A stretch of DNA of 29,036 bases from Clostridia bacterium (GCA_017621015.1 JAGAUC010000004.1:1-29036), one strand, 5' to 3'. Positions 13,417 through 22,761 are shown, counted from the stretch's first letter. The notes: generated by a model not told the origin, from the sequence alone. A program made the numbers and translations.

Positions 13417-15663
13417 ATGATTTTAATTGTAGCGGAAAAGCCGAGTCTCGGTCGCAACATTGCCGGAAGCATTGGCAATATGACCGCAAGGAGCGGCTAT
13501 ATGGAGGGAAACGGATATATCGTAACGTGGGCGTTTGGTCACCTTTTTTCGCTTGCCGATATTGAGGAATACAGCCCCTCGCCGCGCGAGGATCGGCGTT
13601 GGACCATGGACAACCTGCCGTGCTTCCCGAAGGAGTTCCGCTTTGAGCTGCGAAAGGGAAGTGACAAAAAGGTGGACAGCGGCGTGGTCAAGCAGTTTGA
13701 ACTCATCCGCACGCTTTGCAACCGCGACGACGTGGACACCATTGTCAACGCAGGAGACGCCGACCGTGAGGGGGAGATCATTGTTCGCCTTTGTGTCAAG
13801 CACGCGCTGAAGGAGCAAAAGGCCTTCAAGCGGCTTTGGTTGCCCGACCAGACCCCAGAGACCATTCGCAAGGCACTTTCCGAAATGAAGGACGAGAGCG
13901 AGTATGAGAGCCTTGCCAACGAAGGCTTGGCGCGCACGTATATCGACTGGCTTTACGGTGTCAACCTGACACGTTATGCCACGCTCAAAACCGGCACGCT
14001 TTTGCGTGTGGGACGTGTCATCATTCCCATTGTGAAGGCCATTTATGATCGCGATATGGCCATCCGCTATTTTGTGCCCGGGAAATATTACGCCATCATC
14101 AGCCGCGCCGAAACCGGCGGCGAGGTGGTGGAGCTGGTCAGCAAGACGCGCTTTGACAGCGATAAATACGAGCAGGCGCTTGCCTTCTGTAACCGATATA
14201 ACGGCGAGCAGGCCGTTGTAACGTCCATCAAAAAGAAAAAGGACAAGCTGGCACCCGGCAAGCTGTATTCGCTGTCCAAGCTTCAGAACGTGCTGGGTAA
14301 GAAGTATAAGATGTCGATGGCGGAAAGCCTTGAGATCGTGCAAAAGCTTTACGAGGCAGGGTATCTGACCTATCCGCGTACCAACTCCGAGTATCTGGCA
14401 ACGGCGGAAAAGGACAAGATGAAGATCATCATTGCCAACTGCAAAAAGCTGGGCTATCCGGTGGAGTTCAAGGATAAAAAGACCATTTTTGATGACTCCA
14501 AGATCGAGTCGCACTCGGCGCTGACGCCGACCTACAAGATCCCCGACAAGAGCCGCCTGAGCGAGCGTGAGATGCAAGTGTATTCCACGGTGTTCCGCCG
14601 CTTTATCGCGGTGTTCTGCGCCGAGGAATGCGTGGTGGAGAGATCCGAGATCACCATTTCGGTGGGCGAGCTTGAGGAGTTCCTTTTGAAGGGAACGGTG
14701 ATCGTGGAGCCGGGCTGGACAAGGTTTGACGACAACGCGCAAAAGGACAAGCTCCTGCCAAAGCTAAACAAGGGCGACATTGTTAATACCGACTTTAAGC
14801 CGGTGGAAAAGGAGACCACACCGCCCAAGCATTACACCATCGAAACGCTCAACAATTATCTGAAAAACCCCTTCCGCGAGGAAAAAAAGAAGGCCGAAGA
14901 AAAGGGAGCGGACGAGAACACCGAGGTGGATGACACCGAGGACTACAAGGCCATTTTCGAGGGTCTTGAGCTTGGCACCGAGGCTACGCGTACCGGCATC
15001 ATTGACAACGCCCGAAAGAGCGAGTACATTGAACTGAAAAAGGACGTGTATACCATTCTTCCGCGCGGCGAATTTCTCATTGAATCACTCTCGCGCCTGA
15101 AGATCAATATGGACAAGTATAAGACCTCGGAGCTGGGTCAGGCACTCAAAAAGGTTTACCGCGGAGCCATCACGGTTGAGGACAGCGTGCAGCTGGCACA
15201 GGCCGAGATTCAAACGGTTTTTGATAAAAAGAATGTATCTATTGAGACAGACGATGATACGGGATGCTTCGGAGACCTTATCGGAAAATGTCCGCTTTGC
15301 GGCAAGGACGTCGTGCGCGGCCGCTTTTCCTATGGCTGCCGTGGCTATAAGGAGGGGTGCGACTTCAAGGTCAATCTCTACATTTGCGAGCGCGCAATTT
15401 CGGTTGCCAATATGAGATCGCTTTTGGAAAAGGGAAGCACCGATAAGATCGTGGGCTTTCGCTCCAAGCGAACGGGAAAGACCTTTGACGCAAGCCTGAG
15501 GCTGGAGGACGGCAAGGCGAATTTTGTATTTGAGGATTCGCCCAACCGCGGACAAGGTCGCGGCGGCGCGCCTTTCGGCTACATGGAAGCACCGCCCGAA
15601 ATGGCACCGCTTCCCGAAGACCCGCCACCCGCTGTCGCGCACAAGCCGGTACCGCTCGCGTGA
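13417..15663 (+). CDS. topB: Type IA DNA topoisomerase (topoisomerase III-like) with C-terminal Zn-ribbon; last ~13 codons of foreign origin
   Basis: TOPRIM LIVAEKPS and DADREG; active-site GYLTYPRT; GTEATR; CPLCG...C...C domain. Confidence 0.9.
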   Translation: MILIVAEKPSLGRNIAGSIGNMTARSGYMEGNGYIVTWAFGHLFSLADIEEYSPSPREDRRWTMDNLPCFPKEFRFELRKGSDKKVDSGVVKQFELIRTLCNRDDVDTIVNAGDADREGEIIVRLCVKHALKEQKAFKRLWLPDQTPETIRKALSEMKDESEYESLANEGLARTYIDWLYGVNLTRYATLKTGTLLRVGRVIIPIVKAIYDRDMAIRYFVPGKYYAIISRAETGGEVVELVSKTRFDSDKYEQALAFCNRYNGEQAVVTSIKKKKDKLAPGKLYSLSKLQNVLGKKYKMSMAESLEIVQKLYEAGYLTYPRTNSEYLATAEKDKMKIIIANCKKLGYPVEFKDKKTIFDDSKIESHSALTPTYKIPDKSRLSEREMQVYSTVFRRFIAVFCAEECVVERSEITISVGELEEFLLKGTVIVEPGWTRFDDNAQKDKLLPKLNKGDIVNTDFKPVEKETTPPKHYTIETLNNYLKNPFREEKKKAEEKGADENTEVDDTEDYKAIFEGLELGTEATRTGIIDNARKSEYIELKKDVYTILPRGEFLIESLSRLKINMDKYKTSELGQALKKVYRGAITVEDSVQLAQAEIQTVFDKKNVSIETDDDTGCFGDLIGKCPLCGKDVVRGRFSYGCRGYKEGCDFKVNLYICERAISVANMRSLLEKGSTDKIVGFRSKRTGKTFDASLRLEDGKANFVFEDSPNRGQGRGGAPFGYMEAPPEMAPLPEDPPPAVAHKPVPLA

Positions 15664-15699
15664 CCGCGCCGCCGCCAAAAAGTCCATTTTTTCTTTCAT
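15622..15699 (-). pseudogene. 5' remnant (~26 codons) of an ImmA/IrrE metallopeptidase gene
   Basis: MKEKMDFLAAARSRERYRLVRDSGWR versus MKDKNQNSAEAVQSRERYKLVRDNAWR at 21595; 14 identical nt GCTTGTGCGCGACA; SD GGAGGTGA retained. Confidence 0.85.
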
Positions 15700-17742: not shown

Positions 17743-18895
17743 ATGACCGAATTCTACATCTCTTCAAATAAATATAGCCTGGTCGAGCGCAAGACCAAGC
17801 ACAACGGCACGGTGTATGACGTCATGTTCCGCGTGGTCACACTTGACGGCATCGAGCGCCAGAAGAGGCTTTCGGGCTTCAAGAACAAAACGCTTGCCAA
17901 GCAAGCCTACCTCGACTTTGTCACCGAAAAATGCGAGCTCGTCAAAAATAACCCTCTCAAAAAACATAAGCCCGATAAACAGGTTCCCACCGTCGGTGAG
18001 CTCCACCGCTCCTACACGCCGCTCTCGGCGGCCAGTGCAAGGAGGCTTCCTTGTATAGCAAGCAGAGCACCTACGATCTTTTTGTAAAACCAAAATTCGA
18101 GGATCGTAAGATCACCGATCTCAACAAGCAGGAGTTGCTCCTTTGGCAAGACGCCCTCTGGAGCACAAGAAACCCGAAGACCAAAAAGCCGTATTCCTAT
18201 AACTACCTTTCAAAAATTCGCGCCTCCTTTTCCACCTTTCTATCCTGGGTGGAGGAGCGCTACGAGTACAGAAACGCTACGAGTACAGAAACGAATTCAA
18301 GGGCGTGAAGGCGCCAAAGCGACGCACCGCACCCACCAAGATGCAGATCCGGACAAGGGAAGAGTTCGAGCGGTTTATAGAAAAGGTAGACGATCCCGCC
18401 TACCACGCCTTTTTTACACTTTTGTTCTTCACCGGCCGCCGCAAGGGCGAGATCCTCGCATTAAAGCCGGAGAAGGTGAACCTTAAAAAGAAAACGATCA
18501 CCTTCGACGCCTTGATCACGCGTCACACCATCGACAGCGCCGCCTACCGCGAGACAACAACCAAGGCAGAGAAGGTGCAGACCGTCCCGATTTGCGACGT
18601 TGTCACGCGCGAATTGACGGCCTATAAAGGACAAGCTCCTTATTATTTCGGCGGTGAGCGACCGCTCGCTCACACCACCCTCACCCGATACTTACAGAAG
18701 AAGTGCGAGGAAGCAGGGGTGAAGATCATCCGCATCCACGACCTGCGCCACTCCTTTGTTTCCATGCCGATTCACCTGGGCACCAATTATATGGTTGTCG
18801 TCGATCTCATCGGCGACACCGTCGAGCAGGTCCTCAAAACCTACGCCCATCTTTACGAATCCGACAAGCTTGATATTATCTCGGAAATTAAATAA
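17743..18895 (+). pseudogene. Tyrosine integrase pseudogene with two frameshifts
   Basis: Arm-binding N-terminus, core-binding segment and catalytic segment (FTGRRKGEI, HDLRHS, KTYAH) lie in three frames; 1-nt loss near 18016 and 17-nt tandem duplication at 18258-18291. Confidence 0.88.
18258..18293 (+). repeat. 17-bp perfect tandem duplication
   Basis: CGCTACGAGTACAGAAA x2 followed by CG. Confidence 0.95.
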
Positions 18896-19140: not shown

Positions 19141-19243
19141 AATGTTATTGTTGGGAGCCGGTTTGGCGTGAGGTGGTTGCGAAGAGATTAAAAATGGGGT
19201 GCCCCAAAAAAGGGGGCTTTTTTTATTTTTCAAATCTTTATGG

Positions 19244-20323
19244 TCACATCATCTCGGCGAAGTAGTCATTCAGGCGGTCGGTGAAACCGGTTTTTTTACC
19301 CTTCATAATGTGGCCGTAGACTTGGTTGATCATATTCTCGGAGTTATGTCCGACGTAGTCGGCGATATACATCTTCGGGACGTTCAGAAGGAGCATAACC
19401 GAGACGGTGTAGTGTCTGAGGCTATGAAAGCGGTAACGCTTGATTCCGCATTGCTTGAGGAGGGCTACATATCTATTGTAGACAGTGTTCGGGGAAAGGC
19501 TTGTGACAAACTCCTCGTCTGAATGCTCCTTTCGGATACGTGCGAGCGCCTTCTCGACGACCGGGATCATGGGGATTGTTCGCGTGCTTGCCATAGTCTT
19601 GGTCGTCTTCATTACAAGCTTGTCGTTCTCATCGTAGACAAGGGCGCCCTTTATGGTGATGGTGTTCTTATTAAAGTCTACATCGGACCAGCGCAGTGCG
19701 CAGATCTCGCTTCTTCGCATACCGCAGCAGGCGGCAAGGTAAAGCGGAGCCTCAATGGGAAGGCCCTTAGATTTGTCGAGAAGCGTCTTGACCTCCTCAT
19801 CGGTGGGAATCTCGATCTCGGTCTTTTCCTTTTGCGGAAGGGTGGTTTTCAGCGGCATATCGGGGCGGTAGATGGAGAGCACTGCCGAGATCAGGCCGTG
19901 GATATTACGTACGGTCTTGGCGCTATGATCGGCCGCTTCGATGTTGATGGCCACCTGAATGTCCTGTTGTCTGAGTTTATTTACGGGGATGTGCATAAGC
20001 GAGGGGAGGCACTTCTTCCGCATTCTCTTGTACTCACGGATGGTGGAAGGGGAGAGAACTGCCGATTTGGATTCGATGTATTTATCGAGCGCCTCGCCGA
20101 AGGTCATCTTTGATGGATTGGTTTTTATGTCGGTGCCTTCGTCGCGGTCGCGCAAACGGTCGATTGCCCAATGCACGACGGTGTTGTAATCCTTATCCGT
20201 GAAGCTGTCGTTCAGTTTCTTTCCCGTGGCGGGATCTTTACCTATATAGATCTGCACGCGATATGAGCCGCTTGGGAGCTGACTGATGGCAGGGATCTTA
20301 TCTTTCTTTTTGGTGCGGGGCAT
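19244..20323 (-). CDS. Phage tyrosine integrase (intact)
   Basis: Arm-binding N-terminus; CGMRRSEI, FHSLRH, VGHN and VYGH catalytic residues; transcribed toward att. Confidence 0.95.
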   Translation of the reverse strand: MPRTKKKDKIPAISQLPSGSYRVQIYIGKDPATGKKLNDSFTDKDYNTVVHWAIDRLRDRDEGTDIKTNPSKMTFGEALDKYIESKSAVLSPSTIREYKRMRKKCLPSLMHIPVNKLRQQDIQVAINIEAADHSAKTVRNIHGLISAVLSIYRPDMPLKTTLPQKEKTEIEIPTDEEVKTLLDKSKGLPIEAPLYLAACCGMRRSEICALRWSDVDFNKNTITIKGALVYDENDKLVMKTTKTMASTRTIPMIPVVEKALARIRKEHSDEEFVTSLSPNTVYNRYVALLKQCGIKRYRFHSLRHYTVSVMLLLNVPKMYIADYVGHNSENMINQVYGHIMKGKKTGFTDRLNDYFAEMM

Positions 20324-20353: not shown

Positions 20354-21475
20354 TTATGTGTTTCTTCCTTTGCAGAATGTCACGATTCCGGCTATAATGA
20401 GCAGAATGTTTGCCAGTATTGCATCGTTGCGTGTTAAATTGTCAATTAGAAAGACAATATTAAGAAGGATCAAAAGCAATCCCGTGAACATAAATGTGAA
20501 TTTTTGAGTTTCAATTTTCTTTAAGATGCGACTTACCGTTTCTTTAAGAACAAAGTATGCAATAGTCACACCGGCACACATAGCAAACATATCAGGAGTG
20601 TTTTCGCCCATTCGCATTGTCCACTCTACGAGGATATTCAAAATTGGAATGTAGGATATCAGTAAAAAAATAAGGGATACAATTAAAACAATTATTACGT
20701 CAACAATATAAAATTCTAACAATCCCAAAACAGACAAAGGAAGGGAGACAAGCACGCTTTTTGCTATATTTGTTTTTTTGATGTTCTGTCTTAAGGGGGA
20801 GAGAGGGATTGTCTCGCTCAAAGCTTTTAATTCGTCCTCTGTTTTCCTAAGTGAGCTTTCAATCTCAGATGTTTTTCTATATGAATCATTTACATCGTCA
20901 ATAAAAAGAGCATATAATTTTCGAAGTTTAGAATGATCACTATCTTCATATAAGGCAAAATCAATCATCACATAAAATTGTTGTATAGCAATTGCTAACT
21001 TTTTAGATATTTGATTGCTTTTGTTTTTTTGAGTAAAACTTTCGACCAATGTTTTGAACTTGTCGATGATATAGTTGATTGAAAGTCCATTATTTTCAAT
21101 GATGGTAAATTCGTCTTTGCCGACTTCGTGGTGTATGGCAACAAGAATATTATAAAATTTTAATAGTTGTTTTGCGGTTAAATTGAATACATCTATATCT
21201 GAAAGTGCGTTGTTAAGTTGAAATAGTTTGTTAGATAAAGTGTAATCATTTCCGTCATATGCGCACGCTATATCACCAAAATGAAAATCAACAGCTGTTA
21301 TCTCATAAGTAAAATACTCAAAATTACAGAAATACGGATACCGTTTTTCAAGTTGTTTGTTGAACTTGCTATAAAGGCAATCAATTTTTTTGTGAATCAG
21401 ACTAAGCTGTTTTTCTAAGCGTTTCTTTTGTTTTGAGAGTTTAGATATTTCGGTCAGGGATGATCTTTGACTCAT
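20354..21475 (-). CDS. AT-rich coiled-coil protein with about four C-terminal TM helices (lysogeny cargo)
   Basis: 373-aa ORF; one 60-nt line counted at 15/60 G+C; C-terminal hydrophobic helices. Confidence 0.75.
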   Translation of the reverse strand: MSQRSSLTEISKLSKQKKRLEKQLSLIHKKIDCLYSKFNKQLEKRYPYFCNFEYFTYEITAVDFHFGDIACAYDGNDYTLSNKLFQLNNALSDIDVFNLTAKQLLKFYNILVAIHHEVGKDEFTIIENNGLSINYIIDKFKTLVESFTQKNKSNQISKKLAIAIQQFYVMIDFALYEDSDHSKLRKLYALFIDDVNDSYRKTSEIESSLRKTEDELKALSETIPLSPLRQNIKKTNIAKSVLVSLPLSVLGLLEFYIVDVIIVLIVSLIFLLISYIPILNILVEWTMRMGENTPDMFAMCAGVTIAYFVLKETVSRILKKIETQKFTFMFTGLLLILLNIVFLIDNLTRNDAILANILLIIAGIVTFCKGRNT

Positions 21476-21542
21476 TTTTTGTCCACCTTTTTTTTTATGT
21501 TTGATTTTGGCAGTATCGTTCCCGGCGAGGCGGAGAAGGATA

Positions 21543-21587
21543 TTGCATAGACCTTCGCAATCTGATAGGATAGAATTGCGGAGGTGA
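21543..21587 (+). promoter_or_regulatory. immA promoter with palindrome, copy B
   Basis: TTGCAT-N17-TAGGAT (TG extension); arms 21551-21561 and 21575-21585; SD GGAGGTGA. Confidence 0.7.
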
Positions 21588-21594
21588 TATAGTA

Positions 21595-22266
21595 ATGAAA
21601 GACAAAAATCAGAATTCGGCGGAAGCGGTGCAATCGCGTGAGAGGTACAAGCTTGTGCGCGACAACGCGTGGCGAATGCTTCTGAAGCATCGAGTGCGCA
21701 CGCTTCCTGTGGACGTGTTCGATGTCTGTCGGCGCGAGGGAATCCGTGTGATGAGTTATCGCGCGGCGGCGGAGCGCGGGCTCCTTGAGGTGCTCGGTGG
21801 TGTGACCGACGGGAAGGACGGCTTTGCCCTAGTCGTTCGCGGCAAGAAGCTGATCTTCTACGATGACACGCTCTCGATCGGGCGGCAGCGGTTTACCGTG
21901 GCACACGAGCTGGGGCATTTTGCAATGGGCGACGTGGGCGCGGAGCCGACGGCGCGGAACGTAGAGCCGAGTGATAAGGACTCAGATACCGAGAGGCTCG
22001 CCAATATGTTTGCGGCGCGGCTTCTTTCACCGGCTTGTGTTCTTTGGGGGCTTGGCGTGCGCTCTGCTGAGGAGATCGCGGAAATCTGCGGTCTCTCGCG
22101 TGCGGCGTCGGAGTGGCGCTTTCGGCGTCTCTTGGAGCTCTACGAGCGCGAGCGAGGGTGGCTTGCTCAGCGTGGGCGGAGCTGTTTCCTTTCCTCGACG
22201 CTTGAAGCCAAGGTCTATTCGCGGTTTGAGCGGTTTATCAAGACTCAGAATCGCCGATCTGATTGA
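21595..22266 (+). CDS. ImmA/IrrE-family metallopeptidase (anti-repressor)
   Basis: RQRFTVAHELGH and ERLANMFAARLL motifs; adjacent to a repressor lacking an S24 domain. Confidence 0.9.
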   Translation: MKDKNQNSAEAVQSRERYKLVRDNAWRMLLKHRVRTLPVDVFDVCRREGIRVMSYRAAAERGLLEVLGGVTDGKDGFALVVRGKKLIFYDDTLSIGRQRFTVAHELGHFAMGDVGAEPTARNVEPSDKDSDTERLANMFAARLLSPACVLWGLGVRSAEEIAEICGLSRAASEWRFRRLLELYERERGWLAQRGRSCFLSSTLEAKVYSRFERFIKTQNRRSD

Positions 22267-22609
22267 GGATCGCTTCGATGGCGTCAAGCTGCTCCTTAGT
22301 ATATCTTCTGACGATGGCCTTGCCGTCGCGGTGGACGATGACAACGTCCTCCTCAAAGCTCTCTCCTTCGGGGGAGGGCTTTTCTTTTTCGGCAAATAAT
22401 TGAAGATCGATTTCCCACCCCATCAAATAGGAGGGGGTTACATCTAAAAGCCGAGACAAGGTTTCCACTTTGTCTGTTGGTATATTGGTGACAATGTCAT
22501 TTTCATATTTATATATCGCTTGTTTTGTTGTGCCAAGCGCATTGGCAAGCGTCTCTTGTGACAACCCCTTCTTAAGTCGAGCCGCTTTAATTCTTGATCC
22601 TATGGTCAT
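22238..22609 (-). CDS. CI/ImmR-like XRE repressor
   Basis: SD AAGGAGGTGA before ATG 22609; HTH (LSQETLANALGTTKQAIYKYE), VTPSYLMGW; divergent from cro. Confidence 0.9.
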   Translation of the reverse strand: MTIGSRIKAARLKKGLSQETLANALGTTKQAIYKYENDIVTNIPTDKVETLSRLLDVTPSYLMGWEIDLQLFAEKEKPSPEGESFEEDVVIVHRDGKAIVRRYTKEQLDAIEAILNQIGDSES

Positions 22610-22632
22610 ATAGATCACCTCCTTGTGTTGAT

Positions 22633-22736
22633 ATATTATCACATAACTTGAAAGTTGTCAAGTTTTTCGGAAAAAAATTCAAAAATGACTTGACAAGTTA
22701 CAAAAATTGTGGTATCATATGGTAAACTTATAAGTT
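22633..22736. promoter_or_regulatory. Divergent cI/cro promoters with operator palindromes
   Basis: P-cI minus strand TTGACA(22661-22656)-N17-TAATAT; P-cro TTGACA(22690)-N17-TATCAT; (A/G)ACTT-N2/3-AAGTT at 22645, 22687 and 22725. Confidence 0.75.
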
Positions 22737-22761
22737 ACTTTGTGCGATAGGAGGTGAAAAT

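Follow-up and report, generated by a model that had tools for sequence, protein, structure and literature searches.

In front of an immA gene in a stretch of DNA of 29,036 nt from a Clostridia bacterium (the window, which is the whole contig of a 66%-complete MAG), a 35-nt inverted repeat is wrapped around a -10-like hexamer and the Shine-Dalgarno (SD) sequence of the gene, and this arrangement raises the question of what the pairing between its arms is maintained for. A sequence-only reading of the window had proposed that selection acts on pairing or symmetry, and had offered three models: a promoter-choice switch, in which mRNA from an upstream start folds and hides the SD whilst mRNA from a nested promoter, being without the 5' arm, is translated; a phage-specific DNA operator or cruciform over the promoter; and a structure on the opposite transcript that covers cI, cargo and int. 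DNA runs that contain the sequence are gut, faecal or bovine metagenomes.

The inverted repeat in front of immA

The repeat that directly precedes immA, termed copy B, is made up of the following parts:

21543-21548, plus strand: -35-like hexamer of the predicted immA promoter, reading TTGCAT
21551-21561, plus strand: 5' arm (anti-SD), ACCTTCGCAAT, within the promoter spacer, two bases past TTGCAT
21562-21574, plus strand: centre or loop, CTGATAGGATAGA, with TG-n-TAGGAT at 21563-21571 and the -10 hexamer at 21566-21571
21575-21585, plus strand: 3' arm, ATTGCGGAGGT, with the SD sequence GGAGG at 21580-21584
21595, plus strand: ATG of immA, nine bases after the 3' arm

Both 35-nt copies described in the sequence-only reading, copy B and a related copy A on the minus strand (see below), were found with the letters and at the coordinates quoted there, copy B extending over 21551-21585. 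The centre is indeed identical between the copies at 12 of 13 positions, TG-n-TAGGAT stands 17 nt from the first hexamer in both, GGAGGT lies inside the 3' arm, and the three adjacent double compensatory changes between copies A and B (C-G/T-A, A-T/G-C and A-T/G-C) are real. Both stems have a flaw opposite the SD, a single U.G pair in copy B and a single G x A mismatch in copy A. As sense RNA, copy B (21540-21610) folds at -20.8 kcal/mol (z -5.4), a value reached by 0/200 shuffles; for copy A the fold has -19.7 kcal/mol (z -4.4). The SD in the 3' arm is fully paired in these folds, and a 3' arm over the ribosome-binding site also characterises the fold-back class of elements discussed below.

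A reading of the stem as an intrinsic terminator was also considered and is ruled out: there is no T-run after the copy B stem on either strand, hence no U-tract in the RNA, and the terminator scanner gives no call. Rfam, which the sequence-only reading had suggested consulting, was searched and no family matched: none of the covariance models reached its gathering score in the window, and in 21440-21660 there was no match at E<=10.

The prophage module and its decayed sister

The repeat and immA belong to a prophage module with the following genes:

19244-20323, minus strand: tyrosine integrase at the prophage end (Pfam Phage_integrase, E 3.3e-20)
20354-21475, minus strand: variable cargo gene, 373 aa, no Pfam match, divergent from immA
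21595-22266, plus strand: immA, ImmA/IrrE-type M78 metalloprotease, 223 aa (Pfam Peptidase_M78, E 3e-11)
22238-22642, minus strand: cI-like HTH repressor gene (Pfam HTH_3, E 3.7e-14)

The cI-like gene is convergent with immA, overlaps its 3' end by 29 nt and is followed by a cro-like gene. ImmA combines its Peptidase_M78 membership with an HExxH motif: HELGH (H104, E105, L106, G107 and H108) is invariant in alignment A2, and 304 homologues of immA were found at E<=1e-10. The slot taken by the cargo gene holds other genes in relatives, and the hairpin is not at the tip of the prophage but 2-3.5 kb further in.

Copy A is read from the minus strand:

15749-15744, minus strand: -35-like hexamer TTGTAT, 17 nt from TAGGAT (15726-15721)
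15741-15731, minus strand: 5' arm, ACCGCCGTGGT
15730-15718, minus strand: loop, CTGTTAGGATAGA
15717-15707, minus strand: 3' arm, ACCACGGAGGT
15605-15699, minus strand: immA stub downstream of copy A, about the first 30 codons, with its ATG at 15699

Similarity to immA at the DNA level stops approximately 95 nt past the ATG in copy A as compared with copy B; the frame that follows copy A is 204 aa long, has no Pfam match and runs antisense to a topoisomerase gene (13417-15663). Divergent from copy A lie genes for a protein of 182 aa and for one with a SWIM domain, both corresponding to the cargo in L037, a relative that is intact (L labels denote homologue loci of relatives), and downstream of these neighbours the recognisable integrase consists of a C-terminal fragment only. 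Since immA is a stub, the cargo is like that of L037 and the integrase is reduced to a fragment, copy A is part of a decayed sister prophage. The earlier claim that the element is conserved in two phages therefore stands for the hairpin, which is present in two copies, but not for an intact immA gene after copy A, where a stub of ~30 codons gives way to sequence antisense to the topoisomerase gene.

In window positions 17743-18895, the match to Phage_integrase is confined to 18305-18895 and to the C-terminal part of the domain, and the two short ORFs that precede this match have none; the stretch is probably the broken integrase of the decayed sister prophage to which copy A belongs. Rfam also showed part of a tRNA at positions 1-50, truncated by the window start, and ARAGORN found no tRNA in the window.

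Covariation of the arms among close relatives

Ten proteins show 68-90% identity to ImmA, and the contigs of nine could be traced. All nine relatives have one module, with int and variable cargo pointing leftward, immA rightward, the HTH repressor leftward and a cro-like gene rightward; the arrangement of immA and a convergent repressor seen in the window is also found in L035, L037, L038, L094, L096 and L099. Together with the two copies of the window, this close clade provides nine distinct upstream sequences with approximately seven distinct hairpin variants. The SD and the hexamers TTGnAT and TA(G/A)GAT, at a constant distance of 17 nt, do not vary in this clade, and changes in one arm are accompanied by changes in the other: the loop is fixed as TA(G/A)GATAG despite the varying arms, and the flanks further upstream diverge.

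In alignment A3, which holds the nine distinct close-clade sequences, 95.4% of cells pair between columns 20-30 and 44-54, whilst sliding the partner by 1-3 columns as a control reduces pairing to 32-68%. Three adjacent pairs are changed on both sides in this alignment and three more vary only via G.U; one stem column reads U-A in L038, U.G in L096 and C-G in L098, which is a compensatory path of the RNA type. The DNA metagenome runs over the region contributed no new hairpin variants. A metagenome contig (L097:3001-4288) carries int, cargo and immA followed directly by the gene for ribosomal protein S20, with no repressor gene in between; the immA hairpin is still present in what is left of this truncated prophage.

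Burial of the SD across the wider ImmA clade

Genome searches at the level of family and order added approximately 50 further loci with 31-51% protein identity. Many of these distant loci exhibit an inverted repeat of unrelated sequence, in which the SD forms the 3' arm and CCTCC or a near variant is part of the 5' arm: the arm sequences are unrelated between families, and the SD is always in the 3' arm. Burial was measured as the free energy required to open the SD within the 60 nt that precede the gene, with a threshold of 7 kcal/mol. SD opening costs at least 7 kcal/mol in 30/47 distinct immA upstream regions (64%; median 7.9), as compared with 5.4% of 700 genes of the own genome with an equally good SD (median 2.3) and 5.1% of 78 neighbouring genes of the same loci; the Mann-Whitney p value of 3e-13 for this difference overstates independence, given that the homologues are related. 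When the upstream regions were grouped at 70% identity, 36 families resulted, 20 of which keep a burial of at least 7 kcal/mol. Because these families retain SD burial against a background of ~5%, SD pairing is conserved as a trait across this ImmA clade rather than being peculiar to the two copies of the window. The earlier proposal of selection on pairing is thus borne out, by covariation in the close clade and by SD burial in the 47 upstream regions.

Viral contigs gave no match to the exact pattern of loop plus SD. Scans with a single protein returned two distant genome loci and no viral loci; alignment-based scans returned three distant loci from metagenomes and 49 distant viral M78 genes, the starts of which were mostly not placeable. 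No SD stem was found in the four remote viral M78 genes with placeable starts (L047, L048, L049 and L055).

RNA or DNA, and which strand

A transition in a Watson-Crick pair is equally likely to leave a mismatch of G.T type or of A.C type, so that a DNA palindrome predicts equal counts of both; selection on a sense RNA predicts the G.U type only, and on an antisense RNA the A.C type only. When 26 distinct hairpins were read on the immA sense strand, their internal non-Watson-Crick positions comprised 17 of G.U type, 4 of A.C type and 15 others. The binomial p value of 0.0036 for the 17:4 bias is optimistic, since several events are shared by descent, although the direction is consistent. The sense fold is stronger than the antisense fold in 21/26 hairpins, with a mean of 2.8 kcal/mol. 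The clear hairpins have loops of about 4 to 19 nt and some looser stems have longer ones, and such variability does not fit a fixed protein-binding geometry.

The cI-cro intergenic region of the window (22643-22761) contains three copies of the palindrome AACTTnnAAGTT, which are likely the operators of this phage. L035 exhibits the same set in its cI-cro region as the window, L037 has GCGTGCTAATATT, and other repeats are present in L038, L094, L096 and L099. Comparison of the arms with the cI-cro operators revealed no common half-site: beyond the SD, there was one 7- or 8-mer of chance size in the phage of copy B and in L099. In case of L093, the arms are exactly those of copy B in the window, whereas its repressor is 38% identical to that of the window and 82% identical to that of L096; despite the latter value, the arms of L096 differ from those of L093. 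L037 in turn combines the arms of the window with different operators. Arm sequence is associated with the 5' end of immA and not with the specificity of the repressor. The mosaicism at the junction of immA and repressor in L093 points to a recombination event close to where these convergent genes overlap by 29 nt.

These results bear on three explanations that differ from sequestration of the SD in the sense RNA. The arms could be half-sites for a dimeric protein that covers the -10 box and represses the immA promoter, with arm sequences that are specific to each phage. A classical operator layout has its inverted repeat centred on a -10 box, the arms vary between phages as immunity specificities do, and the SD is so near the -10 box that any repeat centred there overlaps it. 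We nevertheless regard such an operator as clearly improbable: no half-site is common to the arms and the cI-cro repeats of the same phage, copy B arms are found with a different repressor in L093 and with different operators in L037, the arm spacing varies among relatives (~4-19 nt), and a bias of G.U over A.C is unexpected for DNA symmetry. For cI and Cro, the model of a phage-specific operator or cruciform is thus unsupported, as the arms share no half-site with the operators and ignore repressor identity; a putative regulator other than cI or Cro could still act on the repeat. A hairpin for processing or stabilisation on the opposite-strand transcript, reaching from cI through antisense immA to cargo and int, is very improbable. 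Read-through from cI is plausible because the cargo gene on the minus strand has no consensus promoter before it, and the antisense RNA of copy B does fold (-12.2 kcal/mol, z -2.2). Yet the antisense fold is on average the weaker one, the wobbles favour the sense strand, the immA SD is invariably covered by the stem although it means nothing on the other strand, and operonic relatives without the antisense layout have the same hairpin: the third model is disfavoured by its weaker fold in 21/26 hairpins and by the rarity of A.C-type positions. That the repeat is a chance palindrome without function, inherited by related phages, is scarcely credible. The two copies of the window are related and one precedes a dead stub, as this explanation would have it, but it is at odds with the 20/36 families that bury the SD by unrelated arms against a background of 5%, and with the compensatory changes within the close clade.

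A predicted nested promoter and start of transcription

The consensus promoter scanner makes no call for TTGCAT-17-TAGGAT, which has 3/6 and 4/6 matches to the consensus (7/12 in total); in copy B only, it calls an overlapping TAGACC-17-TAGAAT, in which TAGAAT is not conserved. As the scanner does not call the conserved hexamers, the prediction of a promoter is based on conservation and not on consensus strength: -35, 17-nt spacing and -10 are fixed in the close clade, and the spacer between them covaries with the SD region. In order to be counted as -10-like, a hexamer had to have A at position 2, T at position 6 and at least 4/6 matches. Such a hexamer ends 2-12 nt before the SD in 35/47 immA regions as compared with 19/78 neighbouring genes (p 4e-8), and 201/726 genes of the own genome have one at that position. 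This position relative to the SD replaced an earlier test on minimum-free-energy loops, which was noisy (p ~0.03) because the fold extends pairs into the loop.

With the -10 hexamer at 21566-21571, the transcription start is inferred near 21578, inside the 3' arm. RNA from this predicted start, from which the 5' arm is absent, is no more structured than shuffles (z 0.24). Elsewhere in the own genome, strings like TAGGAT or GGATAGAA are found in loops before an SD on contigs C116 (near 3747), C128 (near 9857) and C330 (near 1853), and TAGGAT-type -10 boxes may be common in this organism.

Possible upstream transcripts and a proposed choice of promoter

In the arrangement that these data suggest, the -35 hexamer of a nested promoter would stand just before the 5' arm, the 5' arm itself would form the promoter spacer and the -10 hexamer would lie in the loop. 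A transcript initiated anywhere before the 5' arm would have its SD paired with the anti-SD, and ImmA would not be translated from it; RNA from the nested promoter would start inside the 3' arm (~21578), leave its SD free because the 5' arm is absent from it, and be translated. ImmA would then be made only from its dedicated promoter, and not from transcription that enters from the prophage end, from cargo antisense transcription or, in operonic relatives, from the repressor mRNA. Bose and Grossman reportedly found in 2011 that excess ImmA derepresses ICEBs1 and triggers induction. Silencing of stray transcripts would prevent accidental induction, because ImmA cleaves the repressor and an excess of it reportedly derepresses ICEBs1. 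This fold-back sequestration of the SD in RNAs started upstream, with translation of the RNA from the nested promoter, appears to be the best reading of the locus, and we assign it a probability of approximately 0.55. Of the three models of the sequence-only reading, promoter choice is accordingly the one that fits best, with an SD in the 3' arm, a G.U bias in the sense strand, a variable loop length, a -10-like hexamer in the loop and the hairpin present in immR-immA operons.

Relatives with such an operon (L002, L020, L107 and L034) have the HTH repressor 42-51 nt upstream of immA on the same strand; as the hairpin lies in the gap between the two genes, the repressor mRNA must carry both arms. 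The loop contains a -10-like hexamer in two of these four relatives, and L020 is without one. A strong stem is present in 24/30 regions of divergent layout, which is the commoner one, as compared with 4/15 co-directional regions. In the divergent layout there is nothing coding on the immA strand upstream of the hairpin, and for this reason it is a matter of conjecture there where an RNA to be silenced would originate: possible sources of a long RNA are transcription from the prophage end, antisense promoters within the cargo gene or an unrecognised promoter further upstream.

On the antisense strand of the cargo gene, promoter-like sites directed toward immA lie at 20369-20398, 20889-20918 and 21288-21315 (plus strand), the best of them being TTTACA-18-TATAAT at 20889 (11/12 match); in this AT-rich strand, promoter-like sites are no more frequent than in shuffles. 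Terminator-like sites toward immA are found at 19201-19217 and 21452-21472 (plus strand) and may stop part, perhaps much, of the read-through. An A/U-rich hairpin, AAAACCAAAAG ... GTTTTGGTTTT, with a T-rich tract stands ~40 nt above the -35 hexamer on the immA strand in three relatives (L096:1238-1270, L099:2904-2932 and L037:3881-3905); it may be a weak terminator of incoming transcription, but its stability does not differ significantly from that of shuffles (z -0.4 to -1.8), and no argument is built on it here.

The main rival to promoter choice, which we judge unlikely, places the true start of transcription above the 5' arm, so that every immA mRNA has the hairpin in its 5'-UTR: translation of ImmA would be constitutively low, or conditional on heat or on an RNA or protein that opens the stem, and the -10-like loop would be incidental or a minor promoter. 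The evidence from pairing, covariation and G.U positions applies equally to this explanation, the predicted promoter matches the consensus at only 7/12 positions, and in the operonic relative L020, where the loop is without a -10-like hexamer, the hairpin must act in this manner. What speaks for promoter choice instead is the comparative evidence for the nested promoter: the -10-like hexamer before the SD is strongly enriched (35/47 vs 19/78), and the close clade keeps -35 and -10 unchanged and 17 nt apart whereas the remaining intergenic sequence diverges. In addition, no conserved alternative promoter is visible upstream, and loops of 9-13 nt exceed what a purely structural hairpin needs.

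Relation to known systems

In the fold-back inhibition of IS10 and IS50, the distal arm lies over the translation start and the element's own promoter starts between the arms; RNA that comes from outside folds and is untranslatable, which protects a dangerous mobile-element gene from fortuitous activation. Two papers, PMC13181058 and bioRxiv 10.1101/2025.01.24.634351, describe secondary structure as sequestering the translation signals of tnp (citing Davis, Simons and Kleckner 1985, PMID 2416461). The immA repeat resembles IS10 (Tn10) and IS50 (Tn5) in that its SD lies in the 3' arm; a start of its own between the arms would follow from the positions of the conserved -35 and -10 hexamers, the consensus match of which is weak. 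It differs in its gene, which encodes a prophage anti-repressor protease and not a transposase; in its geometry, with a 5' arm that is the promoter spacer itself and a -10 hexamer in the loop; and in its location, 2-3.5 kb inside a prophage, with the stem also found within immR-immA operons. Terminator T1 of Tn916, near the element end, insulates the genes of the element from host or outside transcription and needs the antiterminator canT (PMC11658703). Like T1, the immA repeat would be a cis element that keeps outside transcription from expressing genes that are harmful while integrated; T1, however, acts by termination, whereas the immA stem is without a U-tract and would act on translation. 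As gene, element and geometry differ, the immA element is not a member of either system, although by analogy it would work like the fold-back class of IS10 and IS50.

Closest in gene content is immR-immA-int of ICEBs1, in which an ImmA-type metalloprotease is paired with an HTH repressor beside an integrase and the amounts of ImmA are controlled by ClpP (PMC5812530). There, immA is co-transcribed downstream of immR; in the clade of the window, immA usually has its own predicted promoter and is divergent from int and cargo and convergent with the repressor. The leader of IS200 tnpA (PMC4513863) and RNA thermometers likewise have a stem that buries the SD and limits translation, but this stem is part of every transcript, whereas the geometry at immA predicts a transcript of its own without the 5' arm.

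A full-text search of the literature for immA together with Shine-Dalgarno, hairpin, prophage and repressor found no description of an SD hairpin at immA. The statement in the sequence-only reading that this is not a described element thus holds for the immA literature searched and for Rfam, but not for the principle, which is known as IS10/IS50 fold-back inhibition. We see about an even chance that the repeat represents a widespread and undescribed design in prophages of gut Clostridia: the immA promoter would have an anti-SD as its spacer, translation would be set by the promoter from which the RNA originates, and the design would have been kept by compensatory evolution in dozens of unrelated families. 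If true, it would form a safety catch on prophage induction that responds to promoter of origin, a logic known since 1985 whose application at immA is apparently undescribed. ImmA-type proteases decide the exit of many Gram-positive prophages and conjugative elements, and little is understood of how their dosage is kept safe; if the reading were confirmed, a large clade of gut prophages would guard its induction switch at translation, by the trick of the IS10/IS50 transposases. The element would also be a clean natural case in which a promoter and an RNA structure overlap and covariation can be measured, a compact part (~45 nt) that makes expression depend on the start position of the transcript, and a landmark by which the annotation of metagenomic prophages could place the true start of immA genes and their promoter.

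Further motifs upstream of immA

Two other sequence features were seen in subsets of the homologue loci. In L009, L012, L101, L119, L006, L015, L016 and L017, the 60 nt upstream of immA contain direct repeats TCGACA ... TTCGAC that are ~10 nt apart in the presumed promoter spacer; they directly precede a TATAAT-like box and partly double as anti-SD, and they may be a putative binding site for a regulator. The motif TTAC(C/T)TGTA is present ~45-60 nt upstream of immA, above the hairpin, in the distant homologues L007, L010, L012-L015, L023 and L117.
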